A stretch of DNA of 64,000 nucleotides from Cyanidioschyzon merolae (lineage: Eukaryota). The notes below the pieces were generated by a model. The model was given only the letters and a program-made list of their open reading frames with translations. It made no database searches and was not told where the DNA came from. Both the position numbers and the translations under genes were made by a program. The stretch is taken from assembly GCA_000091205.1 (NCBI GenBank), contig AP006499.2; one strand, given 5' to 3'. Below, in pieces: positions 1-60,761 of this stretch; within the stretch, counting starts at the first letter, position 1, and every line of letters starts with the position of its first letter.

Positions 1-1018
1 CGCAAGGCGGTTTCGCATAATCCACTGGAAGCGATCTCCACGATGACTAAAGACCGAGTCCGAGGCACTTTTCTATGCGAAGAGAAGAGACAGGAGCTCC
101 TGGGGGCATACCCCGTGTAACATATCTCGCTGATGTCGCATGCCGTTCCGTTGATGGCCACCAAAATAGGAGGTTTTTTTCTCGACCGGAATTGCTTATC
201 TTACGAGACATGTTGCGTGAGCTTCCGTCATGAGCTTGTGCACAAGCCTCCGATAGACGACGTTGGGTCTCCCTTCATCTTCTGTTGGCTGGCGAGAATT
301 GCTGCACCATCGAATCGCTTTGTAAGAGAAAATCGATAAGTTGGAGGATGTGTGATTTGAGCGTGCTTCATGTCAGTAAAGCAGAAGCATGCGGACGTGT
401 GCATACGCATTGGATGAACCATTCGGCTCTTTTAAGGATCTTTTTTTTGAGGGTGTCGCCGAATCCGGTTCATCCCAGGCACGGTACGCGTTCCAGCGCC
501 ACTGCGTCGGGCGGAGCCACACTGGGGATACGATCGAGCATACGAAAACGACGTATGCGTCCGCAATCCCTTACTGCTTCACTGCGCACGCCACTGCTGT
601 AGACTAAAAATACGTATGGAGAAAAGTCGAAATGCAGCCCGAGAGCCAGCAGTTCCGTTTTCCATGATGATCCTCTGCTCCCGTTCGTGAAAGCGCAGTC
701 TGCTTCGCCGCAGCCTGTGCCGCACGACACACCGATGGCGCTGTCGCGATCCTTTCATGAGGCTGTGCCGATGCCGCTCCAAAAAGCGCAACGCACTACC
801 CATGCCTTCGTTCTACCACGATTGCAGGGGCGTTGATAAGGCACTCTTGTGGCGACCGGCACTGGGTGCAATACAAACGCACGAGCGCTGCCACTCGGCG
901 CCTTGTCTTCTGGTGCAGCAACCCGCCCGATCCTTGTTCGGCAGCGGCACAGCGCCGGTGGTGCAAACGAGGCGCTCATCGCATCCTATTCGGACTGGTG
1001 TGCGTGCTTCGATCCGTC

Positions 1019-2254
1019 ATGAGTCAGGAAGCGTTGTTTCGTGACTTGCAGCTCATCCAGCGTCTCAATCATATGACGCCACTGTGGATTTTAGAAGACC
1101 CCAGCACCTTCACGTACGCGGGGTTTGTGCCTATCAAGACTGCGTCGCGGGAGAATCGCGCTTGCTTCTTGCGCGTACAGTGTCCAAAAGGACCCGCCGA
1201 CCTGTGTGACGCCTCATATGCGCTTGAAAGTTGGGCAGAAAACCTCATTTCATATTATGGCCTCGATGGCGCCCTGCGAAAGCGGTTAGAGCGAGCGCAC
1301 GACCTAGCAGAGTTCGTTGCTGAGGTCCAGGACCTGCTCGAGCGCTGCGCAGATGGGCGTGCAGCGGTTCCACGAACGCCGGTACCACCACCGGCACCTA
1401 CAGTGGCAGGTAGCACGTTGTTGGCGACGCTACCGGACCCTTTTTTCTACCGGAGACTGTGTACGGATCTGAAGCATATCGGATGGTCTTGCCTGCGGCA
1501 TCTGGCGATGGATTTTGAGTCTGTCACATTGCAGGCTATAGACACGGGCGGGCGCCTCCACGAGCTCCAGATCCTCGACCTCATGCGCGAGCAACCAACT
1601 TGCATAGCAGCGCTGCCATGGCGTCCAACGGCAATTTGCAGACCTGCATCCGAAGACGGACGCTTATTTATCTCGATCTATGAGACCTATCGTCGATTCC
1701 GCAGTATGCTCGATGAACTTGAGCCTTACTTCCGCGTACTGGATGACTTTGATGCGCACACCTGGGTTCTCGAGCCGGAGCATCCAACGTATGCGGTGTC
1801 GTCAAGGCGTCTGAACCTGGCGCCACAATGCTCACTAGTCGTGGAAATCGACCCAGCAGATCCATGCCGCCTCCCGAATGTTCGTTTCTTTGGTAGCGAA
1901 CAGCGGATCGAGGCCATGCGGAATCGTTTCTTTGAGCGCCGAGCACTCTGGGACTCGTCCGCGCGGACTCCGCGAGAGAACCTACAAGTCGTGCTCATGA
2001 TGGCCTTGCCGCCGCGTCCAGCGGATATGATGCAGAACGCAAAAGACAACGAGTGCGGTATTTGCTATACGTATGAGCTGGAGGGTGAGGGCATCCCCGA
2101 TTGGGCGTGCGATGCGGCATCATGCGGGCGACCGTATCACCGCAGCTGCCTGCGCACCTGGCTTGCAAGTATTCCGGAGACACGGCAGCTGTTCCAAATG
2201 TATCATGGCTCTTGTCCGTACTGTGGCGAACCGATTCAGGTGAGCAAGATCTGA
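1019..2254 (+). CDS. FANCL: FANCL-like E3 ubiquitin ligase (C-terminal PHD/RING finger of the Fanconi anaemia core-complex ligase)
   Basis: ORF 833..2254. The track start is TTG. The first in-frame ATG is at 1019 (MSQEALFRDLQ). The last 65 aa, CGICYTYELEGEGIPDWACDAASCGRPYHRSCLRTWLASIPETRQLFQMYHGSCPYCGEPIQVSKI, match the FANCL C-terminal zinc finger pattern CGICY..(D)..C.N..CG.PFH..CL.EWL........F....G.CPYC..PI almost position for position. TGA stop. Confidence 0.65.
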   Translation: MSQEALFRDLQLIQRLNHMTPLWILEDPSTFTYAGFVPIKTASRENRACFLRVQCPKGPADLCDASYALESWAENLISYYGLDGALRKRLERAHDLAEFVAEVQDLLERCADGRAAVPRTPVPPPAPTVAGSTLLATLPDPFFYRRLCTDLKHIGWSCLRHLAMDFESVTLQAIDTGGRLHELQILDLMREQPTCIAALPWRPTAICRPASEDGRLFISIYETYRRFRSMLDELEPYFRVLDDFDAHTWVLEPEHPTYAVSSRRLNLAPQCSLVVEIDPADPCRLPNVRFFGSEQRIEAMRNRFFERRALWDSSARTPRENLQVVLMMALPPRPADMMQNAKDNECGICYTYELEGEGIPDWACDAASCGRPYHRSCLRTWLASIPETRQLFQMYHGSCPYCGEPIQVSKI

Positions 2255-3784
2255 ACGTATCGCTCAAGGACTGGGCGTAGACGTTAAAGCTGACGCATCG
2301 CCCTCGCCGATAGGCACCGATTTCTTCCACGAATCTGATCACAAGTTACGCTGATCATGCTGCATATGCGTTGCAAAGTGGATAAAGATGCGCATTCGAA
2401 CTGTGGCTTTGAAACGCTCTCAGCGACAAGCACGGGAGCGTCGTCAAGATCCCGCCATTCCAGACGCATTGCTGAACGAGCACTGAACATGCTGCATCGC
2501 GCCATACACGAATGCAATTCGTTCAGAGCACATGGCACGAATCACGAAGCGATTTTTCTCCGGATCAATCTAGCTGGGTAGCGAGATAAGGTGAGCACCT
2601 GATGAGACGCGACACACACGCTTGGAATAGGTGCGCTCGAAACTACACCGGTGTTGGGTGCCAACCGCGTCTGCAGGTCGCATCACAGTCGCTCGTCTGC
2701 CACGGACGTCCACGAAACCCCGACAAGTCTGGAACCTTCAAGCAAGTCTATGATCCGGTTCGGGTCCAGGATCCGTTCAACAAACTGCTGCTTGTAGCGG
2801 GGCGCCTATGATCCAGCATTCGAACCCGGATCCGATGAGGGCGGGCGCTTTCCACGCAGCCCGAAGACGCGGTTCATCACGGCATGCTCTTGGTAGCCGA
2901 GTTCGTGCATCCGTCGGCGAGCTGCTCGATAAATTGACGATCGTGCTGTATCCACATATCATGGTGGCTAGTGTGCTGCCAAGTAACGTGTTCAAGCGAT
3001 CACGCAGACTGTTCAGCTGTGATCATCGTCGAACGACGCTATTCCACGACAGACGGGATGCCTACCGGACGCATGTCATCCGCTGTGATGAACGTGGACG
3101 CAAACCGCGCGCGTTTGACAGCGTGTCTCTGAAGTGAACGGTGCTGTCCGGTTATCACAAAAAGTTCGACGTCTCGATCATCGTATTCAGGTCTCTGCAG
3201 AGAAGTCCGGGATTTGTGGATCCGTTGCACCACGAGGAGCTCGCTCATCATTGCGAGCGCCACGCGCCCGCGATGCTTTGTCCAACGCAAGATCGCTGGC
3301 GAGGAAACACTGCCGAAGAATCACAGCGTACTCGCTGCACGAGGGCCGTTACGGTCAGGTGCTGAGGACCCAGAAGCGCCCATGCGGAACGCAATAGAGC
3401 AAGGCAACTCCGCCAGGCTGCGCCTGGAAAGCGATGCGCTATCACCGACAATCGGGCGAAGTTTGCAGCTCGGTCCCCGAAACGTCTGAATGCGTCAACT
3501 GGCTAGACCAGCAGCTTGACCACGGAGCAAACGGAGCACCGCGGTTTGCTCGCGTTCGGATACCCCGTGACAAGCTCGTACATTCCAGACGCCAGAGCAC
3601 GACAGCAGGCAACAGGGCGTGCGGCGCAAGCGATGCGCTCAGCTTCACCGCGCTGTTCTCGATCGCTCGACTTGTGATCGACAGCCGACTACTTCCACAG
3701 GGAATGCCCATCATGACAGTGCCGCTGGTACGCTTCGTACACATGCGCAGGTTTCTCGTTCACAACGAATACCATAAACCGCGC

Positions 3785-6242: not shown

Positions 6243-7598
6243 CACGGAACTGCTCGATCTAATCATGTCTTGCGAATTTTTCCAAACTTGTATCGGTATG
6301 CAGCCTCGACTTTCCAAGTGCAGCGATACTAGTTTACGGGTTCATTTGTCGATTTTAGGATGATCGGTCGTGGTTTCGGTGTGGTGCATGCGACTATCTG
6401 GCGCTGGATCTCGCTAGGTGACTGGAATCAAGATCATTGGCGGCATTCGCGACTAAGGGCTCGTAACATAACCGACATGATCACAGCGTTCAGACGTGCA
6501 AGCCTCCAGGATTCTCCTTTTATTACGTGTTGTATACGCGAATCATAATCTTCATTCACGTTTCCGATCTTTCTGTTTCAAGGCAAGTTGGTTGTGCAGC
6601 AATGCGCTCCGCTGGATTGGCGATGAAGGGATCTCGACGTCGTCTCATTACGACTTGCAGAATATGTTATTTCAATCGCTCACTGGACTTGCAAACTCAA
6701 ATAAGCGATCCCTGGTCGAAAGACAAACACCCTAATCTTCGCGCCCGTCGACGAGACGGTATGCGGCACCAGCACCCTGATACCTCGCACGGGACAGGCT
6801 GCCAGAGGCTCCCGAGTCGCCTGTTCGCAAGCGCAGAAAAGCGCCCTGGACGCTGGGTTCAGTCGTCGCAGCGACCGCTGCCGGTGTAGCGCTCGTCACC
6901 GCTTTGCATGGAGTGAGCGTGCATCGCTCAATATACTTCGACTTGTCCTTCGAGCGGCGCTTTCCTTCGGGTAGTTGCTTCATCGTGGACAACATCGCGC
7001 TCCACGTACCGTCTACCGAGAGGAACAGCGTACGCTTCCATGTAAAACAGGCGGCGTGCTCCCCGAGAGGATCGCCCAGCACAAGCCCGTGATCGCTGCG
7101 TGCGACACTGGGCTCGGAAATGGAGCACGGCATCCAAGGCAGCCTTCTTCATTCGTCAAGGGCATGTACTGAGCGACGAGGCAAGCGTGCGCACGCCACT
7201 GGGTGCTTCTCCAGTGAGAACGTACGGCGTACGTGTGAGAGCACCTGATCACAGTTTCGTGTTACCGCTGCGAAGGACGCCACGAGTCTCTATGAAGACA
7301 AAATGAAAATCGCGAGCGAAGCAACGTTTCCAATTCCAGTCTGTGCATGGAATGCGTTGTCAACAGCGCGCAGCGACGGCTTCGGGGCCTGAACGCTGCC
7401 ATCACCATCGGTCGACTGCTGGCATCGAAGCAGGCGGGACACCAGAGACCAGCGTATATCAACATCTGATGCAAGAACTAGGAACAAGGACCCGTCGCAG
7501 AGGAGGCCCGCAAAGGCCGGTGTTGATGACGGGCGGAAGCGACGCTGACGTTCGATAGTACGTCCGAGTTGGAGGACCCGTTCCATGTTATTTTGCTA
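6243..7598. repeat. R-family dispersed repeat, copy R1 (1356 bp). It is about 99% identical to 23336..24691 and in the same orientation
   Basis: Identity is visible by eye from cacggaactgctcgatctaatcatgtcttgcgaattttt... through ...cgttcgatagtacgtccgagttggaggacccgttccat, with only scattered SNPs (gtatcggtatgc vs gtatcgatatgc, actagttt vs actggttt). The ORF track gives the same peptides at both loci. Confidence 0.9.
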
Positions 7599-7745: not shown

Positions 7746-8492
7746 ATGAACTCGCAGAAAACGATAGATGAAGAGGAACTGCGTATCCCCCGGGATGATC
7801 CAAGTGAGTGGATCAGTTCAGGGTCTGTAGAAAGGTCGACAGTGCTTTTTATCTGGAGTTCGGCGCCCGCGGAAACGCTGGCGGCTAGTCGCAGTGTTTA
7901 TCGTGCGCTTCAGGCGCAGAGGCAACTGCAGCCGGAGCTACGACTGCTCTGTTTCGATTTGCATGAACAAAGATCAAAGCTCTCTAAGGTTCTTGAGACA
8001 TACAAGGTTGGTGCGGTGCCAACTGTGCTCGCGTTCCCGGCGCACGCGCATCAACCCAGCGACCGTGTCGAGGGTGTCTACCCGGCACGCGTTGGCGCGC
8101 TGGTAGAACAGCTGGTTCACAACTCGGCTGCGGCGGATACGAAGACGGTGCGGCAGCGGGTTGAGAAGATGATTAGCGAGCACCCGATACTGCTTTTTAT
8201 GAAAGGAACGCCTGAGCGGCCTCGGTGTGGGTTTAGTCAACAGATCGTGCAGCTTCTTGTGGGGGATCTCAAACTGCCACGTGCCAGTCTTGCCACATTT
8301 GACGTACTAACTGACGAGCAGGTCCGTCAAGAGGTGAAAGCATACAGTCAGTGGCCGACATTTCCCCAACTTTACGTACGAGGTGAGCTCATTGGCGGCC
8401 TTGATGTCTGCCGCGAAATGGCACAATCTGGCGAACTCGCGGCATTACTGGCATCCGCGACGCGCGATGAACACGGAACAACTGGTCCTTGA
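7746..8492 (+). CDS. monothiol (CGFS) glutaredoxin with an N-terminal thioredoxin-like domain (Grx3/PICOT architecture)
   Basis: ATG at 7746. The C-terminal domain LLFMKGTPERPRCGFSQQIVQLL...WPTFPQLYVRGELIGGLDVCREM carries the CGFS active site and the Grx fold motifs (TFPQLYV, GGLD). The first ~120 aa are thioredoxin-like with no CxxC. Confidence 0.75.
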   Translation: MNSQKTIDEEELRIPRDDPSEWISSGSVERSTVLFIWSSAPAETLAASRSVYRALQAQRQLQPELRLLCFDLHEQRSKLSKVLETYKVGAVPTVLAFPAHAHQPSDRVEGVYPARVGALVEQLVHNSAAADTKTVRQRVEKMISEHPILLFMKGTPERPRCGFSQQIVQLLVGDLKLPRASLATFDVLTDEQVRQEVKAYSQWPTFPQLYVRGELIGGLDVCREMAQSGELAALLASATRDEHGTTGP

Positions 8493-9524
8493 GGTTAGCG
8501 CTGCAGACAACGATTGTTTCAGCTATGGTTAGTATGGGCAGGGTTGCGCGTATGGTGACTCTGCGGACGAGTGCAGAGAAAGCGGACCTGAGTCCAAGAT
8601 TCCCGGACTCTGTGCACGAACGAAGCCAAAACCTTCGCGGAGCGGCCTCACTGGTGGACACTCGTGAACCGCATATTTTCTGAATCTTTTGACGGTATTG
8701 ACCACCTGGAAGATGACCGGCATCGCGTGAATCGATGCGCAGGATTCCATAGTATTTTTCCAGATAGAATACTGGGGCACGCAGATTCATACAGCTGGCA
8801 TCTCATGCAGCGTGCCTTAGGGTGATGTCGTGCAGTGCTACAAATTCCGAGTGCGTGCTGCGGAGATCTTCGTAAGCTGAAAGAGGCAACGCGATTTTGC
8901 TGGAACAGGGGTTCCATGGAAAATCGAGATATCGAGCACCTGCCCTGCCGATGATGGCACTGGCCCGCCTTGACGTGTTCTTGGAACACTGCGACGCCAT
9001 TTGATCAGGATTGCGTAAAGAACACGCTGGAGCTCTGAACCGCACTGATCGCTGCTGAAATATCGCCCTGGATTCTGGGTCTGTGGTTTCGGCCAGAACG
9101 ATCGTCGATGGAAAATTTTCCTCGTGATACTACCCCAGAAGCAGTCTTAAATGCAGAACCCTGATGCCTGGGCTAACTGTACAAGCGCGCCTTTCATTTT
9201 TGTTCCTTCGTCCCGCTCGTATTCAACGAATGGAGTCTATTCCGTGGACCGAAGAGAGATGGTGGGAAATTTTATACTATCATAACGTACTTGCGAAGAA
9301 TGGCATTCACTCTACAAGTCACTCATTCCGCGATCATCAGTGGGTTATTGAGCAAAGCTGCTCGTCGTCCTTGTTCTCGTCGTCGTGCTCTTATCACGGA
9401 TTCTGTTCTACTCTGTGCCCATCGTCACCTACTCGTCAATCTTTTTAACTCGATATGTTTTCTTAAAAATAGCATAACAGAATCCATGGGATGTGAAGTG
9501 TCCACACCGTTGATATGAACCGCG

Positions 9525-11453
9525 ATGAACGTACATGAATGGACAAAGAAGTACGCACACTGTCATAGGAGACCGTCACGCAGTGAACTACTCAATATCC
9601 ATCTAGTATTAGAACGCGAATGCGTATCCCAGGAGGCAGGCGGCATCGTTTCGCTCGAGGAGACCTCGTTCAGGGGAAACGGTAGCGCCGCACAGTGGTA
9701 CGCAAAGAGGGGCAAACCGCTGTTTGTAAAACAGGTACTCTCGAGCACTCCAACAACATTAGCCCTTGCGGATTTTCAATCGTAGAGTTACGACGAAATC
9801 GCCAAATGAGCAAGATCGTTCAGCACCACTCCATTAACTGAAGCACGCTTCATGGTGCCTGCTTCTCAAAGTCTTCTCGCTGCCCGTATGACACTGCCGC
9901 TTTCCAACACTCGAAAGCAGCCAGGGAGTGCGTGGCTCAGATCGACATTGACAAGCACTTCGTGCCAGCGTATTCTGCCTGGTTCAATACAAACCAATGT
10001 ATCTTCTCTGTTGTCATACGCCATTTTGATGTTCTAAGACGCATGGACGAATCGTTTGCAACCGTGGCGTCGCTCGTCATCAAGTCGTTGTGTACCTTTG
10101 CCAGCCGTGAACTACGGTGCTGCCCCTGTGCTCTTGCGGGGCAGCAATCGAAAAGATTTGCCTCGGTCAGTGGATATATGCTGGTGACGGCGACGGTGAC
10201 GAGCTTGTAGTTAAGGCGTAGTGGATATACAAAGACGAACGGAGAGCTTCGGTGATGCTGCCAAACTAGTACTTCTGAATTCCGCGAAGAAATCAGGTAT
10301 AGAGCATGTCGATTACATGCGTGTCGCCCCGGCACGTAGAGGAAGCAGGTTACTATTGCACTAGTCTCCGCGAGCAACAAGGAAGCGTTCTCACGACCTC
10401 GCGCAGAGCGCTGGCAGAGCTTGATGAAGATTTCTCGCTTAGAGGGAGGAAGTGGGAAGGGTTTTTAAAGAATGATAGAGGGCAACAGAGTATCGAGCTG
10501 CAAAGCCTTTGTCAAAAATTGGCATGTGTCGCGCGACGAGACTCATGTTCAGGTGTTCAGGATAGATGAAGAGCAAGACTTTATGATCAGTGTGGATCCC
10601 GGATTCAACAACTTAATCGCTGTAGCTGTCCCTCTACATCCAGAGGACAGAGCTGAAAATCTGAACGGCGTGAAGTTGTACCAGATCAACTTTTCCAGGC
10701 CTGGGTACCAACAAGAGTCGGGTATGGCAGACTCAAGGCGGCATACCAACAACTTGAATGATTGTGTCAGGACTGGTCTCGACGCTGTGTGCACCGTGTC
10801 GTGCAGCGTGCGCTGCTTTGCACGCTTCATTTAGAGAGTACATCAGCGTAAAAGTGGCTCGTGCGGACGATCTTTGGCTGGAGTATGCGACTTCGTGCTA
10901 TGACCGCCAATGGATTGGGGTTTACTGAGGCAGGGAACGTGCGTCCGCCAACGTCTTCAATGAGTTGGACAAAGAAATGACCGATACGTATTATCGTTTG
11001 GCGTCAGCCTATCACGCAAGACGTGCTGAGGCGCGAAAGGAGTGCATCTCTGATCCTTTGATGAGCGCGTTCAACGAGTGCACGAATCGATGCTGCACGA
11101 CTCGCGTCGATGAGTTCAGGACTGCATTCATGCATCAGGGGCGCGGCCGCACATTGGAGTAGGCAGAGAAGGGGCGCGTGAAGAAGAGACGGACGCACGA
11201 GGTGGTATGCGGTAAGCTGATCGAACGTCAGGTGACGAGGGAATCAAAATTGAGAGGCTTCCCATGTCGTACTTCCACCGGCAAGCATGCGCGCAGGCAC
11301 TCTCTGCACCAAAGCTTGAAAGCCTCGATCAACCTGCGAAATTGTTCCGTGCTTCCGGAGCGCCCAGCGCCTTTGTGTCGAGCAGATAATCGAGGGAATC
11401 GTTTATTGGTGAGGTCGGGGATTTTGCTGACACACACGGAATACTTTCGATAA
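9525..11453 (+). mobile_element. degenerate Fanzor/TnpB-like (IS200/IS605 OrfB, RuvC-fold) element, copy D. It is pseudogenised and split over 5 or more frames
   Basis: ORF 10472..10834 contains VQVFRIDEEQDFMISVDPGFNNLIAVAVP, the RuvC-I G-I-D-P-G block with Asp intact. ORF 11178..11453 contains KHARRHSLHQSLKASINLRNCSVLPERPAPLCRADNRGNRLL. That is a degenerate RuvC-III DFNAAINIRRCAxL...ANF block in which the Asp is replaced by Ser. ORFs 9525.., 9932.., 10306.. and 10965.. cover the N-terminal and linker regions in other frames. Confidence 0.6.
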
Positions 11454-11931
11454 AAACAGTCAATGGCTACGAGACGTGTCATTGGATTCCCGCCTGTGGC
11501 AAAGCACAAATGCAGCACAGTACGGTACGGTCAGCGGTCCATCAGGCTTGGAGTGCCGTCTAAATGCATGAGTATGGACCGGAAACGCTTTTCCTGGGCT
11601 ATCGGAGAACGTGAACGGTGTTCCATTATTCGATATTACAGAGTAAAGCACCATGCCAATCCACAGGCTATCTAATGAGTGAATTCATTATGCGACGCTG
11701 GTCAACTGGAAAGCAGCCCGCAAAGTCCGCCTCTGGTGCGAGGAGCCGTCAATTCAGACACAGAGCACTCGATTCAAAAATCTGGCAAAACTTTTTTCGG
11801 AACGATCCATCCACGAAAGATTGCTCGGAGCATGCAGCTTGTTGGCAATCGTCCTTCGCAGGAATCGGGGAAGCAGCGGCTGCATCCGGCAAATGCATTG
11901 CTACTGATTCGTTCCGAATCGCGCTTGACCT

Positions 11932-12852
11932 CTATCGATTCGCTTGGTACGTATGCCGCATTTGCTTCGTCTCCGGCGCTTGGAGATCTTGTGCGGAGGG
12001 AGAGCGTTTCAATCCTCTGGCAAAAGCACTTCGGATATCAAGGCCGGGTTTTTTTCCGGGCTCATCGCGTCGAGGCTCTATCAATGACGGACCTTCGTTC
12101 TTGACGGAAGACACTGTATTCGATACAGGGTGCCAAACGATTTGCTCAGTCGGCTGCAGACAACGATGCACCGCCACACGAGCAGGCACCTGCTCAACGT
12201 CGAGCCATGCCTGGAGCTGATCCTCGGTTTCCAAAAGTGCCGGCATGCGGTTATGCATCCACTGAATTTTGTCGCTGGCTGCGACAGTAAAAATCGCAAA
12301 TCGATTCATCTCTGTCTCCTCAACGAACAAGGCGGCCATAAACAACGGTCGGTCGATCATGTCGTGCGCGTTCCGAGGCGCCAAGTGGTCCTTGCTCTCT
12401 CTCTTTGTAACACCGTGATAGATAAAATAGGGTATTCGGGATGCTTTCGTCATTGTTTTGATTTTACCCACGTCCTGTTGCTCACCAGGGGCATCTGCAG
12501 CGCTCCACTCGTAAAACCCGTTCGCAATAACCACAGCGCGCTGACCTGCATCTAACGCTGACCGGAAGCTCGCCTTTTCAAGAGCAGTCTCCGCCCGCAC
12601 GTTGATGACGATTGGAGGGCTCTCACCCTTACCAAAAGTTCGCCCACGAATCGGAAACGCCCAGCGCATTGGTTGCAGAACACGCTCGCCTGAAACAGTG
12701 CGCAGCAGTGGTACCGTTTGCTGCGGAGCTACATTGTAGCGCGGCTGGTAGTGGTAGCGCTTTTCCTGGTCCTTCGCGTCAGCCCAGCGAGTTGTTCCAG
12801 CAACTCGTTCAAGCTGTTCTCGAGAGTAGTACAGCGCGAAGCGTCCGCACAT
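11932..12852 (-). CDS. SRAP-domain protein (HMCES / YedK family abasic-site DNA-protein crosslinking peptidase)
   Basis: 306-aa ORF with ATG start. It begins MCGRFALYY (catalytic Cys2 directly after the initiator Met), followed by the SRAP hallmarks YNVAPQQTVPLL and a conserved His in the C-terminal half. Confidence 0.75.
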   Translation of the reverse strand: MCGRFALYYSREQLERVAGTTRWADAKDQEKRYHYQPRYNVAPQQTVPLLRTVSGERVLQPMRWAFPIRGRTFGKGESPPIVINVRAETALEKASFRSALDAGQRAVVIANGFYEWSAADAPGEQQDVGKIKTMTKASRIPYFIYHGVTKRESKDHLAPRNAHDMIDRPLFMAALFVEETEMNRFAIFTVAASDKIQWMHNRMPALLETEDQLQAWLDVEQVPARVAVHRCLQPTEQIVWHPVSNTVSSVKNEGPSLIEPRRDEPGKKPGLDIRSAFARGLKRSPSAQDLQAPETKQMRHTYQANR

Positions 12853-23335: not shown

Positions 23336-24691
23336 CACGGAACTGCTCGATCTAATCATGTCTTGCGAATTTTTCCAAACTTGTATCGATATGCAGCCTC
23401 GACTTTCCAAGTGCAGCGATACTGGTTTACGGGTTCATTTGTCGTTTTTAGGATGATCGGTCGTGGTTTCGGTGTGGTGCATGCGACTATCTGGCGCTGG
23501 ATCTCGCTAGGTGACTGGAATCAAGATCATTGGCGGCATTCGCGACTAAGGGCTCGTAACATAACCGACATGATCACAGCGTTCAGACGTGCAAGCCTCC
23601 AGGATTCTCCTTTTATTACGTGTTGTATACGCGAATCATAATTTTCATTCATGTTTCCGATCTTTCTGTTTCAAGGCAAGTTGGTTGTGCAGCAATGCGC
23701 TCCGCTGGATTGGCGATGAAGGGATCTCGACGTCGTCTCATTACGACTTGTAGAATATGTTATTTCAATCGCTCACTGGACTTGCAAACTCAAATAAGCG
23801 ATCCCTGGTTGAAAGACAAACACCCTAATCTTCGCGCCCGTCGACGAGACGGTATGCGGCACCAGCACCCTGATACCTCGCACGGGACAGGCTGCCAGAG
23901 GCTCCCGAGTCGCCTGTTCGCAAGCGCAGAAAAGCGCCCTGGACGCTGGGTTCAGTCGTCGCAGCGACCGCTGCCGGTGTAGCGCTCGTCACCGCTTTGC
24001 ATGGAGTGAGCGTGCATCGCTCAATATACTTCGACTTGTCCTTCGAGCTGCGCTTTCCTTCGGGTAGTTGCTTCATCGTGGACAACATCGCGCTCCACGT
24101 ACCGTCTACCGAAAGGAACAGCGTACGCTTCCATGTAAAACAGGCGGCGTGCTCCCCGAGAGGATCGCCCAGCACAAGCCCGTGATCGCTGCGTGCGACA
24201 CTGGGCTCGGAAATGGAGCACGGCATCCAAGGCAGCCTTCTTCATTCGTCAAGGGCATGTACTGAGCGACGAGGCAAGCGTGCGCACGCCACTGGGTGCT
24301 TCTCCAGTGAGAACGTACGGCGTACGTGTGAGAGCACCTGATCACAGTTTCGTGTTACCGCTGCGAAGGACGCCACGAGTCTCTATGAAGACAAAATGAA
24401 AATCGCGAGCGAAGCAACGTTTCCAATTCCAGTCTGTGCATGGAATGCGTTGTCAACAGCGCGCAGCGACGGCTTCGGGGCCTGAACGCTGCCATCACCA
24501 TCGGTCGACTGCTGGCATCGAAGCAGGCGGGACACCAGAGACCAGCGTATATCAACATCTGATGCAAGAACTAGGAACAAGGACCCGTCGCAGAGGAGGC
24601 CCGCAAAGGCCGGTGTTGATGACGGGCGGAAGCGACGCTGACGTTCGATAGTACGTCCGAGTTGGAGGACCCGTTCCATTTTATTTTGCAA
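23336..24691. repeat. R-family dispersed repeat, copy R2 (1356 bp). It is about 99% identical to 6243..7598 and in the same orientation
   Basis: See R1. The boundaries are where identity with the R1 flanks is lost (gaaatggag|cacggaactgctcg on the left and ccgttccattttattttgc|aaggggtacagc on the right). Confidence 0.9.
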
Positions 24692-36399: not shown

Positions 36400-37300
36400 A
36401 CGGATCGTTCAAATTGGGCGTACACTGTACGCCCTGGGTATCGTTCTAGTGTCATCGACACAGGCCTGTGGAGACTTTTTCATTTCTGAGACCGCTTCCT
36501 TCATCGCCCTCTTGTCTACGGCTCGAAATGAGGCGGGCTCTCCGGTCCTTCCTGCTCGGTTGTCGGCAATGGAAAGATGTTGAAGGCAGCGTTTCAAGTC
36601 CAGATTTCGCAGATTCGGACTGCTGCCAACGCAGTTCATGCAGAGGCGGAAGTTGCGCTCTACGCTTCGCTTGCCATTTTCACCTGATTGGTAGGGAGCC
36701 ATGGTATGCGCTTCGCAACGGTGACAGTAAAATGTACTCTTGTGTTCTGGTATGCCCATTATACGTTCTGCGTCGAGGAGCCTCCTGTGGTGCGTGAAGA
36801 CTTGCTCCATAGCTCGGTACATGACAGGTACCGAGGACTCGCATCGATGCCAGCTTCCGTTTCCGTACCGAGTCCTAGACGCTTTGATGACGGTAATCGT
36901 CTGGATGATCTCTTCGACAAGCTCTCCGTCTGCTGCACACGCAAGCGGATGCTGTACAATTGGATAGAGGATTTGTTCAACGCGACATTGCCCATTAGAG
37001 AACAAGTACCCGGAAGAAAATCCAGGCTGGAGAAACATTCGAGAAAATTTGAACCGTGTACACTCACCTCATGCAAAGCGGTGATGCGCTCTGCACAGGA
37101 AGCGATCGCTGTGATGCCTGCATTCCTAGTCCAAGGCCCTTTTCCATGGAAAAGGAGGCAATGGGTGCTTCTGAAAGCATTTCCCGTTGGATATTTCATG
37201 CTGCTGTTGCGCTCAGCTTCGTCGATAGCGATAAATAGAAAAAGGAGGGATTGGTCTTTCGGATAGAATCGACGTTGATTGGACGTGACAAGTTTCGTCA
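36400..37300. repeat. R-family repeat, diverged copy R3 (about 75% identity to the central part of R1, inverted orientation)
   Basis: Plus-strand ORF 36688..37266 (...REQVPGRKSRLEKHSRKFEPCTLTSCKAVMRSA...) aligns with minus-strand R1 ORF 6732..7133 (...MKQLPEGKRRSKDKSKYIERCTLTPCKAVTSAT...). The reverse complement of 37090-37140 aligns with R1 7038-7100 (ccatg.aaaa ... gatcgct). The boundaries are approximate. Confidence 0.6.
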
Positions 37301-37489
37301 ACTTCCGGCATGAGCTTGTGAGCAAGCCGATAAAGAACGACGTGGCATAATAATCTATGTAAATGCATTGTTCATGAAACAAAGAAAATGTCTCACGACC
37401 ATGAAGGTATATATACATACTGACGAGCAGACGCCTCCGAATCTTCTTTGATCGGCGGCTTGCCTTAGGTATCAGTTTCTCCCCATACA

Positions 37490-38771
37490 CTTCGAGACTG
37501 AGAAGCTGCCCTACAAAGTTTGCTCGCGTCAGCTCATCGGGTCTTGTCTCCAGAACCGCACATCGTATGATATTGATGGCGGCGTTGAAGTCTTTGTTCG
37601 CGAACTCCATGCGTTTGTTGCCGCTGTTTGAACTCATCAATGCAAGGGTTGCTAGAACCCGCGTCCTGTGTGCCACCTGCTGCTCTTTCAGCAATCCGTG
37701 CTTTTCCATCGCCGAAGCCCTCCGCTGTGTTCTCCCTATCTCGACCATCTGGTGTGTATAACCCAGCTCATGCCTTAGATTTTTCATTTCTCAAAATGAA
37801 TGGGCTTCTTTATGCCCGTAGCTAAGGACCTTCCCCGAGGAAGAAGGACATGTTCAAGAAAAACGACATATGCCTCGGCGTGCCATCGTGTGCTGAAAGC
37901 TTCGGCAATTCGCCCCGTGGAGCGATCATTGCGTTTCAGGACAGAATACACTCCTTCAATGGGGCTGAATCACGGAGCGTATGGAGGAATGGAAGGCAGC
38001 TCTACTCCCAGATAGTATCGGCAAAATCTGGAACTCAAGGGGAATGGTAAAATACTACGTTGTTCAATAGAAGGACGTTGCCGGACTTGAGGAAAAAATG
38101 TTCAACAATTCGACAAAGTGTTCGCTGCTATTGAATGAGCCTTCTCAACGAGCGAATATGAGGACGCCAAATGAATCCACTCCAGCTAGAACAGATGATG
38201 ATGTCCTCGTTCTCCTCGAGCTCGATCTTGTATACAATGAGCTCTATCTCCGAGAAAATAAACATATACGATTGGACCGTTTCGTCTGAAGCAGTTCTCA
38301 TCGGCTGAAAAACAAACCGACGTGCCTGTGCTTCACACGAATCGAGAGGTCCCATGCATGTTGTCGCTGCGATCTCGGTGGAAGATAGCCGTTTTCGTGA
38401 ACCAGGACTGGTTTTGTATGAATGTATCCCGAGTTTCCAGGATCACACGAGCAAGCTGGTGAGAAACAGAGACACCCGCAATAACTACTATTATCGCGTC
38501 GCTTTCCTTAAAGCAATCAAGTGGTCGTTTTTCTAACATGGCCGACAACAAAGTTTTTACCAGTACCTGTTTTTGGAGCAGAGCGCGCATACCTGTTTCT
38601 TTCAGTGTTCTCGACCATCCTAGTATAGTAGTATGACTGACCTGAAGAAGGAATGCAGCCCTCGTTACCATGATCAGTAAATAATATGTATCGTGCATGC
38701 ATTTCGTCTACGATCGAATCGATACAAAGCATAGAAATGTCGATCTCGTACGATACACTGCGAAGAGGCAT
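37490..38771 (-). mobile_element. degenerate Fanzor/TnpB-like element, copy B
   Basis: ORF 36759..37787 begins MKNLRHELGYTHQMVEIGRTQRRASAMEKHGLLKEQQVAHRTRVLATLALMSSNSGNKRMEFANKDFNAAINIIRCAVLETRPDELTRANFVGQLLSLEVYGEKLIPKASRRSKK. That is an intact RuvC-III D-x-N-A-A-x-N-I block plus the family C-terminal tail. The rest of that ORF is read-through into the inverted R3 repeat. Upstream fragments are ORF 38128..38355 (...IELIVYKIELEENEDIIICSSWSGF, the RuvC-I position with the Asp lost), 38333..38698 and 38517..38771 (N-terminal region). There is a stop two codons upstream of the 37787 ATG. Confidence 0.6.
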
Positions 38772-39018
38772 TTGATGACACGCAGCAGGCGCGAAACAAA
38801 ACTGACGTGAAAGACTATAACAATATGCATATAATTGCTACAATCTGCCTTTTTTGAGACAATCGCTCCTGAACGTCCCTGTGCGCTTACCAGCGAGCGT
38901 CAGCAGGCGCGCGCCTTGTACCCAGATCCGCCGTGGGGCGCCTGTCGGAGGTCGCCGCTACGCGACCGTATCTGCGAGCCACCACGCTGACCTGCACACT
39001 GCTGCATGCGTAGACGGT

Positions 39019-42217: not shown

Positions 42218-42899
42218 CCAACGTGACAGCAAGGCAGCAGCGCTGCGCGCCCGCATCGTTGCCCGTCCGCAGTGACTCGGGCGTCGACGACGACGACGAC
42301 GGCGAAGAAACGGAACTCGAGTGCTGCGGGCGCGTGACGGCGGGAGCGCTGGGCGCGCGCGCGCGCTGAGATCATCTTGCCGGACTCGTCGTTTTCGACG
42401 TGCAGCAGTGAGGGTCTATCGATATATGTAGGTGGATTTGGGATTTTTGGGTCATCTTTTGGGGTGGTTCGCTTGACGCTTTGCGGTTGGAATGAAGTTA
42501 GGTTACCGTAAACGAGCTGATTCGCAGTGCCATGGAACAGGGTTCGAAAACGATCTGGTATTATGATGCAGTACACAAGGTGCACAGCGCCACGCTTCGC
42601 GTTGTTTTCCCGTGAATCATGCATTACACGAGCATTCTTCGAGATTTTTACGGCTGTGTTTCATGGAAACCCGTAGGCACAGTGATTCGGGCCGATGGAT
42701 TTACAAGAAAAACGTTCGGCCTCGTTTCTTGACGACTTGTTCACAAGCTCTTGTCGAATGTTCACTGAAATACGAAGGTAAAATAATCGACTCCGTTCGA
42801 GAGAAAAATCCAAGGCTCTATGTGGCCATGGATGAAGCGGCGTTCGATAGCAGCATGATGCCTCTTAGGGGCTATGCTGCCGGAGGCCCTGGTGTCTTC

Positions 42900-43520
42900 A
42901 GTTTTCATGGAACGGGGTCTTGGACCTCGACTTGAGTCATCGAAGCGATCGTTACCAGGGGAGCGCGCGTCACCGCTTCGCAAAAAAGGAGCATGAACGG
43001 ATCGAAATTACTCGATTTTTCCTCCAAACTGGATTTCTGTTTTCGCACTTGTTCCATCGCAGAAAACATTGCGCTCCATAAACCCTCAGTAGAATGGAAC
43101 AACGTGCGCCGGATTGTGCGATCGATAGAGAACTTGTCGGGGAATCGTCCAGAAAAAGCCCGTGATCGCTGGTACAGCGTCGAGGGCGTTATCGAAGGAG
43201 GGTATCGACCATCATCCGCTGTGCTCGTCAAGGGCATGTACCGAGTGATAAAGCGTGCCTTTATGCGCCATAGGCCGGTGCCCAGAGAAGTACATACGGT
43301 GGACATGTCGGAACGCATTCAAGTTTCGCGGCTGCGACAGATTCTATACAAAGAAGATAAAAACGAGAATCGAATCGTAGATTGCAACTTTTGCATCTGC
43401 ATGAAATGCGTAAACAACATACGGAAGCCGATTAGGTATGCCGGTAGCACTCGTATGAATATCCTTCGACTGCTGACAAAAGAGCAGGAGCAACGAGAGA
43501 ATCCGGCGGATTGAAAGCCC
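42900..43520. repeat. R-family repeat, diverged copy R4 (same orientation as R1/R2)
   Basis: Minus ORF 42905..43318 (...TRYMPLTSTADDG...RTLFHSTEGLWSAMFSAMEQV...FDPFMLLFCEAVTRAP) aligns with R1 ORFs 7013..7252 and 6732..7133 (AQYMPLTNEEG...RTLFLSVDGTWSAMLSTMKQL...IERCTLTPCKAVTSAT). Plus ORF 42993..43514 (NIALHKPSVEWNNVRR...PSSAVLVKGMY) aligns with R1 plus ORFs 6904.. and 6975.. (NIALHVPSTERNSVRF...PSSFVKGMY). The shared 16-mer aagcccgtgatcgctg is present. In R4 the two R1 frames are in one frame. Confidence 0.6.
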
Positions 43521-47528: not shown

Positions 47529-48189
47529 GACCGCCAAGCTCAAGCCCTAAAACGAAACTCTTGTTCAAGAGTCTCTCGCAAAGCGAGCACTAATCACGCT
47601 GCAAACCACCAACACACATGCACGATCTATGTCTTTGTCAACTGAACGAAGCTCCATGCCAGGGCGAGCCACGTGTACGAGGACTGCGAGCGCGACGCCG
47701 CACGTCCGTCCGCCGCTCGAACACGACATGCGGCACGCGTGCGAAACGACGCCTGGCACCGGCTGCAAACACGCGATCGCCACGCGCGGCACACGCTGGG
47801 AATCGCTTCCGAGAGCAGTGCATGGTGATTATGGGCGTTTGTTACCATGAAGTTCAGAAAGGTGGAGATTCGTGATTCTAGCTCTGCGATTCGTCGAACA
47901 GTGCCCAGTGCGCAGCGCGCACGATGGGGCAACGCCGGCTGTCATCAGCGCCTCGAAGCAATTGAACAGCAGCTCGAAGGCACGACGAGTAGAAACTGAC
48001 CATTTACTAGGAACGAAGGGAGAGTGCTTCGTTATCCATGCGCGGCAAGGGATGAGAGGTGGTAGATTTTTGCGTGAATAGGAAACTTTACTTGGTGGGC
48101 GTAAGCTCCCGCGATCCGGGCTCGTACGCGGTGCGTACCCGCAGTGGCGAGTGCGTTGGCGACGCCCGAGCAGTTCGTCCGCAACCCAG

Positions 48190-48400
48190 TGTTTTCTGGG
48201 ACGAGGAGAAAGGTGCCTGGCGTCTGGGCATCGCCCTGACCTCTATCGTCCTGTAGCGTGTCGTTTCGTGCTATCTCGAGCACTAGGTCTATTTGAGCGG
48301 CCTGCGGGATCCCGGGATAACGAAGCAATTCGAACACGAGTCTCATGAACCACACCTCGAGCTGGCGCCTTCCGTAGTATGGCGAAACCGCTCCGTATTC
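48190..48400. repeat. ~210-bp segment related to 29700..29930
   Basis: See 29700..29930. Minus ORF 48032..48424 carries PYYGRRQLEVWF...QAAQIDLVLEIARNDTLQDDRGQGDAQT, parallel to PYYGGRLLEVWF...QAAQIDVLPMAARSDILGDHCDQGDAQT. Confidence 0.65.
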
Positions 48401-49266
48401 TTGCTGTGTCCGTAGCGGTGCCACAGGTGCTACTGGGAGCGCTCAAGCCAAGCTCGGCGCACGATAAAACGTACGAAAAGAAGTATCTCCGAGAGGAAGT
48501 ATGCGAAATCGAACTGGGAGGTCTGGGGCCGTATAATGGTCGCTTTCCAGAATACGAATATCCATCGCGCAATCGAGGATCTCTGGTCGGTGGAAACGTT
48601 ACGCTTATCGAGAACATCAACGGCCGCACGTCGCTCAGGCGAGCAGTGTTTCCCAGTGTGCTGCTCATCCTGCGCTGGCAGCGTCACCGGTGCACGCAAC
48701 GCGCACGTGCAGTTGCTGGACGCCAAGAACGCCCAGAGCGTGCCCTGAAGCGGACAAGGTATCTAACAGGCCTCACACTGTCCAGAACAGTTGTAAAAAG
48801 CCGTTGGCCATGCCCACGCGTACCAATCCCCTGCTCCTGATACGAGCAGACGCGGACCGAGCGACACACAGTCGGCACAGCGCGCTGCGCTGTAGCCTGG
48901 TCCGAAACTTGAACCCTGGTGTCGGTCGGCGGCCAAACTGGCTAAGCTGCAGCGTTCGAGTCGGGTACCACGGCAACGATCTGCAACGAGCTCGACGGAC
49001 CGCAGAGGCTCCTGCATCATCTCTAGAGCCGGCGCGAGCGGGCAGGCAAGCGAGCTCGTGCGTGCACTCGACAGACGGTGCTCGCTGAAACGGCGTGACA
49101 CCTCGAAGGCACCTAGCGCACGCGCCGTACGAACTCGTTCACCATCGTGCGGCAGTGACGTCATGCATTGGATGTAGACCAGATCGCAGACCTCGACATA
49201 CGCTGCGCTCAATGTGATCCTTCAATCTCTCAAGCTCGAGCATGCGCGTGCGAACAAGCACCAGAC

Positions 49267-59072: not shown

Positions 59073-59149
59073 ACACAGCAACTGAATATGTTGGCGATGG
59101 TGTACCAGGAAGCGAAAACGTATCGCGAACATGGGGTAAATGAATATCC

Positions 59150-60070
59150 ACCCGGAGACATGTGCCTGCCTTTTTCGACCGGGCTCCTGCTGTCGGCTTT
59201 CGTTTTCTCCTTGCACACTTCGAACATCAGAGGCGGTGCGACGAAGTTAGGTTTCGTCAGCTCTGCGTGTCTCGTCTTGAGCGCTGCACATCTCCTGATA
59301 TTGATAGCAGCGTTGAAGTCTCGGTTCGCAGACTCCATGCGTGCAGTGCCTCTGGAGCTACTCACTCATGCAAGGAATGGTACAACTCGCGCCCTGTGTG
59401 CCACTACAGTCTCGTGATCGTCTCGTCGATGAAACACCTTTGCTCTCCGATTTCCCCTCATCTTCATCGTCAGTTGCTCTTCTTCGCTCGACGGTCGCAC
59501 AGAAGAGGATGTTTTCCGGTTTTATCGGATAGCCAGCGATGTCGGTCCTTCAGAATCCCCGAATTCCATGCTCATACCTTTCCCTTCTATTTTTATTTCT
59601 TCAAAAAAACACAGTTGTTTATGCCCTCAGATGAGGACCCTCCCGGAAGGAGACGGTCTTGCAGAAGAACGACGAAATGTGCCCTGGTATCACCGTGTGG
59701 TGAACGCTTCAGCGCTTGGCGCAGTGGCGCAATCACTAGGTTTCGTCATAGAAACGCCTGCTCTTCATAGGACTGAACCACCGAATGTACGGAGGAATAA
59801 AAAGCCGCTCTACCCTGACAGAATCAGCGATAGATCGAACGCAAGTGGAATGGAGAAATACCACAATATCCAACGGAAAGACGTCGTCAGACCTCAGGGA
59901 AAAGTCTTCAATTGTTCGATAAAATGGTTCGTGCTGTTGTATGAGCCTTCTCTACGAGCGAAACTGAGGTCGCCGAATGGTTCCACTCCCGCACGAACAG
60001 GTGGTGTCCTTGTTATCTACGAATTCGTTCGTTGAGAATATCAGTTTTTGGCGCTGATCGCATACGCTTC
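59150..60070 (-). mobile_element. degenerate Fanzor/TnpB-like element, copy C. It has an internal deletion and an in-frame stop, and abuts or overlaps the 3' end of the RBBP6-like gene
   Basis: Reverse-strand translation of 59520->59300 in one frame gives ...MKMRGNRRAKVFHRRDDHETVVAHRARVVPFLA*VSSSRGTARMESANRDFNAAINIRRCAALKTRHAELTKPNFVAPPLMFEVCKEKTKADSRS. A TGA interrupts the conserved block (the ORF-track 'M' at 59365 is the GTG that follows it). Upstream fragments in other frames (59880-60070) align with the N-terminal region of copy A (FVREWNHSATSVSLVEKAHTTARTILS ~ FVGEMASHRRKNKDSVIRAAIKEHRAVLG; VFPLDIVVFLHSTCVRSIA ~ [19 protein letters not shown]). The RuvC-I/II region is missing, a deletion of about 500 nt relative to copy A. 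Confidence 0.6.
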
Positions 60071-60761
60071 TTTCTTTCAGTATTCCTCAACTACCTGAGT
60101 TCGTATGGTATGGCTGACGTAAATGATGCATGCAGTCCTCCTTGCACTATTCAGTAAAAATATATCTCTGATAGACGATTCAATTACGATCCACACAGTA
60201 CATTGCATCGTGAGTCCGATCTCCTGCTCTGCACTGCGAAAAAAGCATTCGTTGACACGCAGGAACGTCGGAACGGAATTGACTTGAACAAATTCGCAGC
60301 TGAACATCAGCACCGATGCGCTGAGGTGAAGTGCCGCACAATGCAAAGTCGAGTGTCAGCGCTTGGCAGACGCAGTACTAGCTGCCGCAACGACCACAGG
60401 TTCTCGAGTTCGTGTCTGTGTGTCTGTGTGTGTGTGTCGGTAACCGTGACGTTCGAAACCTTCCGGAACACGCTCGCCGCAACGTGTTTCGAGTTCGTCG
60501 TCCCGTACTGACGTTTTCTGACGACAGAGTAGCGAGCTGGCGTTGACGTTTTGTTCGTGCCGTTTGGAAAGCGGCACCGGAAGCCGAGCCTTCCCCACGA
60601 CGCCCAGTTCCGCTGCGTGTTGTTGCGGTTCCGCGTAGCAGCTCGTTGAACGAGAAAACTGGGGTAGGGGCGCGTCAACGAGCACAGAGGTGGGTCAGGT
60701 TTCGCTTGTGAATAGCCGCACGCAGCCTGCACAACGTCTGCAGGTCGAGTGAACCGTCATT

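Follow-up and report, generated by a model that had tools for sequence, protein, structure and literature searches.

What kind of element left the broken coding sequences between a glutaredoxin gene and a SRAP gene of Cyanidioschyzon merolae, and is it one more copy of a family present nearby? The question concerns a remnant, here called D, on the plus strand of a 64,000-nucleotide stretch of contig AP006499.2 (assembly GCA_000091205.1; the window), which also holds three copies, A, B and C, with similarity to the CMe-1A element of this species. A preliminary description had read D (9525-11453) as one degenerate TnpB/OrfB-type gene in five or more frames and implied a fourth, more mutated copy of the family of A, B and C. 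The present analysis leads to a different reading: D is very probably a decayed DNA transposon of the Tc1/mariner type (DDE_3) with a Fanzor1 gene downstream on the same strand, a separate lineage that is now dead. The element is real but non-functional, and elements of its kind have already been described.

The Fanzor1 remnant

The presence of a degenerate TnpB/OrfB-type gene was borne out, and a family profile as well as hhalign identified it as Fanzor1. Searched against metagenomes, a reconstruction of copy A found 195 relatives (E ≤ 0.001); among the best 120 of these 195, intact relatives carry the motifs GADPGNTN, VDEFRTS and NRDFNAAIN. The family profile matched D at 10568-10801 (27.7 bits) and 10821-11411 (106 bits), with a whole-region score of 113.6 bits; none of 100 shuffles, searched in six-frame translation, scored above 2.5 bits. 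An exhaustive profile search yielded 1429 relatives, 67 of these sequences were aligned (alignment A3), and hhalign placed the reconstructed D protein on this profile with 99.9% probability and an E value of 1.7e-32. By tblastx, D (10827-11297) matched copy A (27696-27226) with 35% over 157 residues, and the VDPG stretch of D (10568-10645) matched the TNPG stretch of A. The closest relative was a 699-residue protein from a brine metagenome (P0121; phmmer, 186 bits), and a further relative, P0019, scored 163 bits. The profile A3 matched the solved Fanzor1 proteins of Parasitella (PpFz, 9cf0, E 2e-21), Spizellomyces (SpuFz, 8gkh, E 2e-13) and Guillardia (GtFz, 9cer, E 5e-7); the link of D to these structures is transitive via the profile, not direct. 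An AF2 (AlphaFold) model of a family member, built on the A3 alignment, reached a pLDDT of 83, and Fanzor1 structures filled its first seven Foldseek ranks (E 1e-13 to 9e-10), ahead of TnpB and Cas12. PDB searches with single sequences and with shallow profiles of close homologues found no Fanzor1; the deeper 67-sequence profile was needed. A first AF2 model from 20 close sequences had a pLDDT of 34 and was useless. Pfam gave no useful match for single open reading frame (ORF) fragments of copies A to D and no match for intact family members, in a library searched without precomputed PF26935 (DUF8286).

Fanzor1 similarity in D is confined to 10373-11420, the C-terminal half of the protein (residues 343-693 of P0121). 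The frame-aware alignment to P0121 needs a single +1 shift near 10805 and three in-frame stops (10466-10468, 10926-10928 and 11160-11162). The first frame (10373-10804, +) corresponds to residues 343-489 and spans RuvC-I along with the last part of the WED-like region. The second (10806-11420, +) covers residues 497-693, is also supported by the 106-bit profile match and by hhalign, and stays open to a stop at 11451-11453. The three peptides of the preliminary description were found again, VDPG in the ORF 10472-10834, a Cys-rich one in 10965-11162 and KASINL in 11178-11453; at the protein and profile level VDPG and KASINL align with RuvC-I and RuvC-III, as expected from their proposed co-alignment with the other copies. 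In RuvC-I, VDPGFNN (10592-10612) aligns with GADPGNTN of the relatives, and the Asp codon (10595-10597), aligned with the invariant D318 column, is intact as had been described. D is also the sole copy in the window with this Asp, since A has Asn (TNPG) and B and C lack any RuvC-I segment. At the canonical RuvC-II site the strand ASAYHARR (11001-11024) stands in place of AYGAG and has no Glu. The relocated catalytic Glu is intact in RVDEFRTAF (11103-11129; Glu at 11112-11114), and its column is Glu in 67 of 67 sequences. Both the RuvC-I Asp and the DEFRT Glu are invariant in A3, and the Glu follows the AYGAG strand by about 30-45 residues, in agreement with the rearranged RuvC-II site that has been described in Fanzors, where the canonical strand lacks Glu and an alternative Glu lies downstream (PMC10530073). 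HQSLKASINL (11307-11336) aligns with the RuvC-III motif NRDFNAAINI; the Asp found in 66 of 66 relatives is Ser in D (11313-11315), so that RuvC-III is degenerate, again as described.

Other parts of the preliminary description did not hold. The Cys-rich peptide CISDPLMSAFNECTNRCC (11043-11096, +), taken for a remnant at the place of the OrfB zinc ribbon, aligns with KGTTPAPTTRTYKECARRF of the family (frame-aware alignment, hhalign and column statistics) and sits within RuvC, between the AYGAG strand and the DEFRT Glu. Between this Glu and RuvC-III, column statistics showed no CxxC…CxxC ribbon in D or in any of the 67 clade members. One Cys is conserved in 48 of the 67, and CMe-1 proteins show HH…C…C instead of the ribbon. 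Three CMe-1 proteins (P0282, P0005 and P0002) have a variable number of tandem repeats of about 22 residues (KHEEKKEA…QEV.DND..V) directly before the RuvC-I strand; copy A has a single unit there. The proposed start of the Fanzor gene at 9525 was not confirmed either, since upstream of 10373 there is no similarity to a Fanzor N-terminus beyond shuffle level: four different Fanzor N-termini scored no better there than in shuffled DNA. A match of 9974-10131 to residues 267-316 of P0121 was rejected, its score of 51 being within the shuffle range and the stretch lying inside the transposase remnant described below. D thus does not hold a complete Fanzor1 protein; the N-terminal REC/WED half was undetected and the frame is interrupted.

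The transposase pseudogene and the outline of the element

The contig of the brine metagenome that encodes P0121 (L081) carries a DDE_3 gene directly upstream of the Fanzor1 gene on the same strand. Its product scored 83 bits with Pfam DDE_3 and 25.5 bits with HTH_Tnp_Tc3_2, the latter under the cut-off of 31.5 bits. By tblastn this transposase matched the window at 9252-10090 (E 7.6e-27), and its frame-aware alignment to 9235-10080 scored 341 against a shuffle maximum of 54. The transposase pseudogene of D (9235-10080, +), probably of the DDE_3 (Tc1/mariner/IS630) type, corresponds to residues 1-280 of the 302-residue relative and has about five frameshifts (9272, 9340, 9359, 9850 and 10071) and three in-frame stops. 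Its catalytic triad reads Glu (SLEETSF, 9651-9671), Asp (PYDTAAF, 9884-9904) and Gln (NTNQCIF, 9986-10006) where Asp, Asp and Glu are expected. The stretch 9525-10370 was therefore misread as a Fanzor N-terminus; the 5' 40% of the interval is the transposase pseudogene. With the transposase counted as a separate gene, most of the supposed five or more frames are explained: two frames and one shift remain for Fanzor, and the shifts at 9850 and 10071 belong to the transposase. A transposase followed by Fanzor1 is already on record in the mariner elements PUl-1 and PUl-2 (PMC3627910, supplement), and an association of Fanzors with Mariner/Tc1 elements has been reported (PMC10530073).

The same transposase also matched copies B (38727-37825) and C (60013-59634). 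The alignment of D with copy B through the peptide IELEENEDIIICSSWSGF was spurious, as this peptide lies inside the transposase remnant of B. A 5' leader precedes the transposase start of D (9177-9234, +; alignment A4) and has a conserved block in common with those of B and C; it serves as the best estimate for the left portion of the element, whose true left end is not defined. The block comprises about 110 nt directly upstream of the transposase start (D 9177-9284, B 38708-38820, C 60184-60299). An nhmmer profile of it scored 68 bits at 9177-9284, a circular result as D is one of the three profile sequences, and the sole match outside these sequences was a weak one (E 0.003) at 29327-29250, where copy A has its CMe-1A leader. 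For the spacer between the two pseudogenes (10081-10372, +) no similarity of any kind was detected; the CMe-1A consensus does not match it, and Fanzor N-termini score no higher there than in shuffles. It may be the site of a deletion that took about 1 kb coding for Fanzor residues 1-342.

Several results weigh against this reconstruction. The preliminary description had advised a search for terminal repeats and a target-site duplication; it was carried out, and in none of the four copies did terminal inverted repeats (TIRs) or a target-site duplication, TA included, rise above chance. In D, the two end zones gave a best inverted match with a score of 18, the 95th percentile of shuffles being 22. 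Since TIRs, TA duplication and defined ends are missing, it is the transposase remnant alone that places D in Tc1/mariner, and the reconstructed transposase of D scored 17.7 bits with Pfam DDE_3, under the cut-off of 28.6. No Rfam match indicated a guide RNA at the 3' end of D, and the folding z-score of 0.20 for 11300-11540 gave no signal of RNA structure; relatives of D for a covariation analysis were lacking. A homologue search of a large protein collection with the reconstructed D protein returned nothing, and the missing N-terminus might be too divergent rather than deleted. Given the phmmer scores of P0121 and P0019, the word index of this search seems to have missed distant relatives; the empty result still speaks against a close relative of D in the collection.

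D and the CMe-1A family

The 3169-bp consensus of CMe-1A from C. merolae was given in the supplement of Bao & Jurka 2013 (PMC3627910), with copies about 80% identical to it; the classification was left as 'unknown', and one Fanzor family was listed for the species. Copy A is a full-length CMe-1A, with consensus positions 2-3169 on 30121-26956 (-) at 83.1% identity, which by itself points to C. merolae or a very near relative as the source of the window. Three frameshifts and four stops interrupt its Fanzor1 ORF, in which RuvC-I Asp is replaced by Asn and RuvC-III Asp by Gly. B and C are 72% and 75% identical to the consensus and keep merely the last 118 and 89 Fanzor codons.

Did D arise as a fourth, more mutated copy of this family? 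The same protein profile matches all four copies, and a distance tree places D in the clade that holds the CMe-1 family and P0121. The DNA tells otherwise: in a comparison with the consensus, blastn (word size 9) found A, B, C and a fragment at 48082-48600 and nothing in 8400-12000, and a nucleotide-level alignment of D to A, B or C does not exist. At the protein level D is just 33-36% identical to the CMe-1 relatives and to P0121 and forms a long branch beside them, and its best relative is the brine-metagenome protein, not a CMe-1 protein. The number of stops points in the same direction. When CMe-1 was decayed neutrally to 36% identity in a simple substitution-only model, a simplicity that also counts against our reading, 12 stops arose on average and at least 4 in each of 200 runs; D has 3. 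Most of the divergence of D was thus probably acquired under coding constraint, and the lineage died later. Descent of D from the family of copy A is improbable on these grounds. Judged by sequence comparison, D is a distinct, older, dead Fanzor1 lineage apart from the abundant CMe-1A family.

B (37419-38820, -) and C (59149-60299, -) are two members of a composite element, about 70% identical to each other. Their layout comprises the leader, a DDE_3 remnant, a short piece around the CMe-1A Fanzor start codon, and only the final 90-120 codons of Fanzor, together with the 3' end of CMe-1A. The transposase remnant of B scored above the Pfam cut-off (48.7 bits), and C 59616-59543 matches positions 869-938 of the consensus. 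Two intact CMe-1-type loci (L082 and L083) have no transposase upstream. The structure of B and C suggests that CMe-1A may be a transposase-less derivative of a Tc1/mariner-type element. A wider scheme can be proposed tentatively, at slightly less than even chances: the Fanzor1 genes of Cyanidioschyzon would once have been cargo of Tc1/mariner-type DDE_3 transposons, D would be a second, unlisted lineage, and CMe-1A a transposase-less element mobilised in trans. Other repeats were seen in the window. The fragment at 48082-48600 (-) matches the first 540 bp of CMe-1A at 71%, a part that CMe-1A has in common with the short element TE-N2_CMe (PMC3627910). Another dispersed repeat family (36900-37240, 6766-7080, 23859-24173, 42816-43140 and 1-280; DNA identity about 66-71%, up to 85 bits by tblastx) has no relation to the Fanzor and transposase sequences, and one of its copies adjoins copy B.

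Fossil state and place among Fanzor elements

D lies inside a 3.4-kb spacer, and its described position between a glutaredoxin gene and a convergent SRAP gene was confirmed for both neighbours with Pfam. On the left is a glutaredoxin-domain host gene (7746-8492, +; PF00462, E 2e-14), on the right an SRAP/HMCES-like host gene convergent with D (11932-12852, -; PF02586, E 3e-44); exact-protein look-ups gave no record for either product. The G+C content of the spacer, 0.49-0.51, is below that of the surroundings. Three conspecific metagenome contigs (99.2% identical) all contain D, and none shows an indel in it. The density of single-nucleotide polymorphisms (SNPs) in its Fanzor part (10364-11411) is 9.5-11.5 per kb, like that of intergenic DNA, and the distribution of 5/3/4 over codon positions 1/2/3 gives no sign of purifying selection. 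The differences to the three contigs are clustered, with up to 11 SNP positions in 10546-10882 (340 nt around RuvC-I) and just 2 in 10883-11931 (1050 nt, which take in the 3' part of D and the gap before SRAP). Possible causes of the clustering are a haplotype or conversion tract, constraint on the 3' region of SRAP, and chance. The only matches of a metagenome scan with SRAP were loci of the same species (99%) and distant SRAPs from bacteria, so that no empty-site comparison was obtained. A scan for bacterial promoters and terminators was uninformative, the host being a eukaryote. D is best read as neutral, fixed, fossil intergenic DNA.

Could D still be functional or domesticated, through introns, programmed frameshifting or a truncated RuvC-only protein? 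In favour, D keeps the RuvC-I Asp and the relocated Glu, has no more than three stops and one shift in 350 codons, and is fixed in the species. The C. merolae genome is nearly without introns, which speaks against splicing, and the stops are not intronic because they replace conserved residues within aligned blocks (LYGGKKR against VY*GRER). The Ser in RuvC-III, the absence of the whole N-terminal RNA/DNA-binding half, and SNPs without third-position bias at intergenic density complete the case, and we consider a surviving function hardly credible. A chance or compositional artefact of translated intergenic DNA, favoured by nothing beyond the low identity of about 35%, can be dismissed as the origin of the similarity: the shuffle controls already refuted it, and it is contradicted by collinear matches across 350 residues including all three catalytic motifs and by the independent, collinear transposase match upstream.

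RNA-guided cleavage has been shown for other Fanzor1 proteins. In a living element with the architecture of D, the DDE transposase would excise and reinsert the element, and its 3' end would be transcribed into a guide RNA with which Fanzor1 cleaves matching DNA. By analogy with TnpB, such cutting may help the element to persist. An RNA-guided function may thus formerly have been present in D. Most of its divergence from CMe-1 would have arisen while the gene still worked, followed by the death of D, and about 340 N-terminal Fanzor codons were lost, probably through an internal deletion. All of this machinery is now broken: the transposase by shifts, stops and the change of two of three catalytic residues, the Fanzor by the loss of one half and, in the other, by one shift, three stops and the Ser in RuvC-III, with no termini or guide RNA recognisable.

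In comparison to known systems, D resembles the Fanzor1 proteins SpuFz1 (8gkh), PpFz1 (9cf0) and GtFz1 (9cer), which its profile matches by sequence and fold, in the GxDPG motif of RuvC-I, Gly/Ala at the canonical RuvC-II site, the relocated Glu in DE(F/Y)RTS and an RDxNAAxNI-type RuvC-III. Unlike these proteins it is a pseudogene without the N-terminal half and the RuvC-III Asp, and without a recognisable guide RNA; SpuFz and PpFz have the CxxC…CxxC zinc ribbon, whereas the whole clade of D lacks it. CMe-1A occurs in the same genome, belongs to the same protein superfamily in a neighbouring clade and, like D, has no detectable TIRs. It differs from D in that its consensus has no DDE_3 transposase and that the two have only about 35% protein identity and no DNA similarity. 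PUl-1 and PUl-2 of Pythium ultimum, as well as the P0121 locus, have the arrangement of D, a DDE transposase first and Fanzor1 directly downstream on the same strand, with DD35E-type spacing. The Pythium elements possess TIRs of 24-33 bp and TA duplications, whereas none are detectable in D, both of its genes are broken and the Fanzor is truncated. Bacterial TnpB of IS200/IS605 and IS607 has the same RuvC fold (Foldseek 8h1j, rank 8) and is likewise a nuclease carried as transposon cargo; it differs in its partner, TnpA instead of a DDE transposase, whereas D has the rearranged RuvC-II Glu and a eukaryotic host.

The occurrence of Fanzor1 in C. merolae was already known, as was its presence on mariner-type elements, and D is a further, dead example. 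The importance of the locus is small beyond annotation, and no new mechanism is implied. A mis-reading is corrected, since two genes are present, not one, and D belongs to a different lineage and is not a fourth copy. Modestly new is that D, B and C each join a DDE_3 transposase to a Fanzor1 gene. They provide a plausible superfamily, Tc1/mariner with DDE_3, for the unclassified Fanzor1 elements of C. merolae, and with D, an extinct second Fanzor1 lineage joins the one family reported for this genome.

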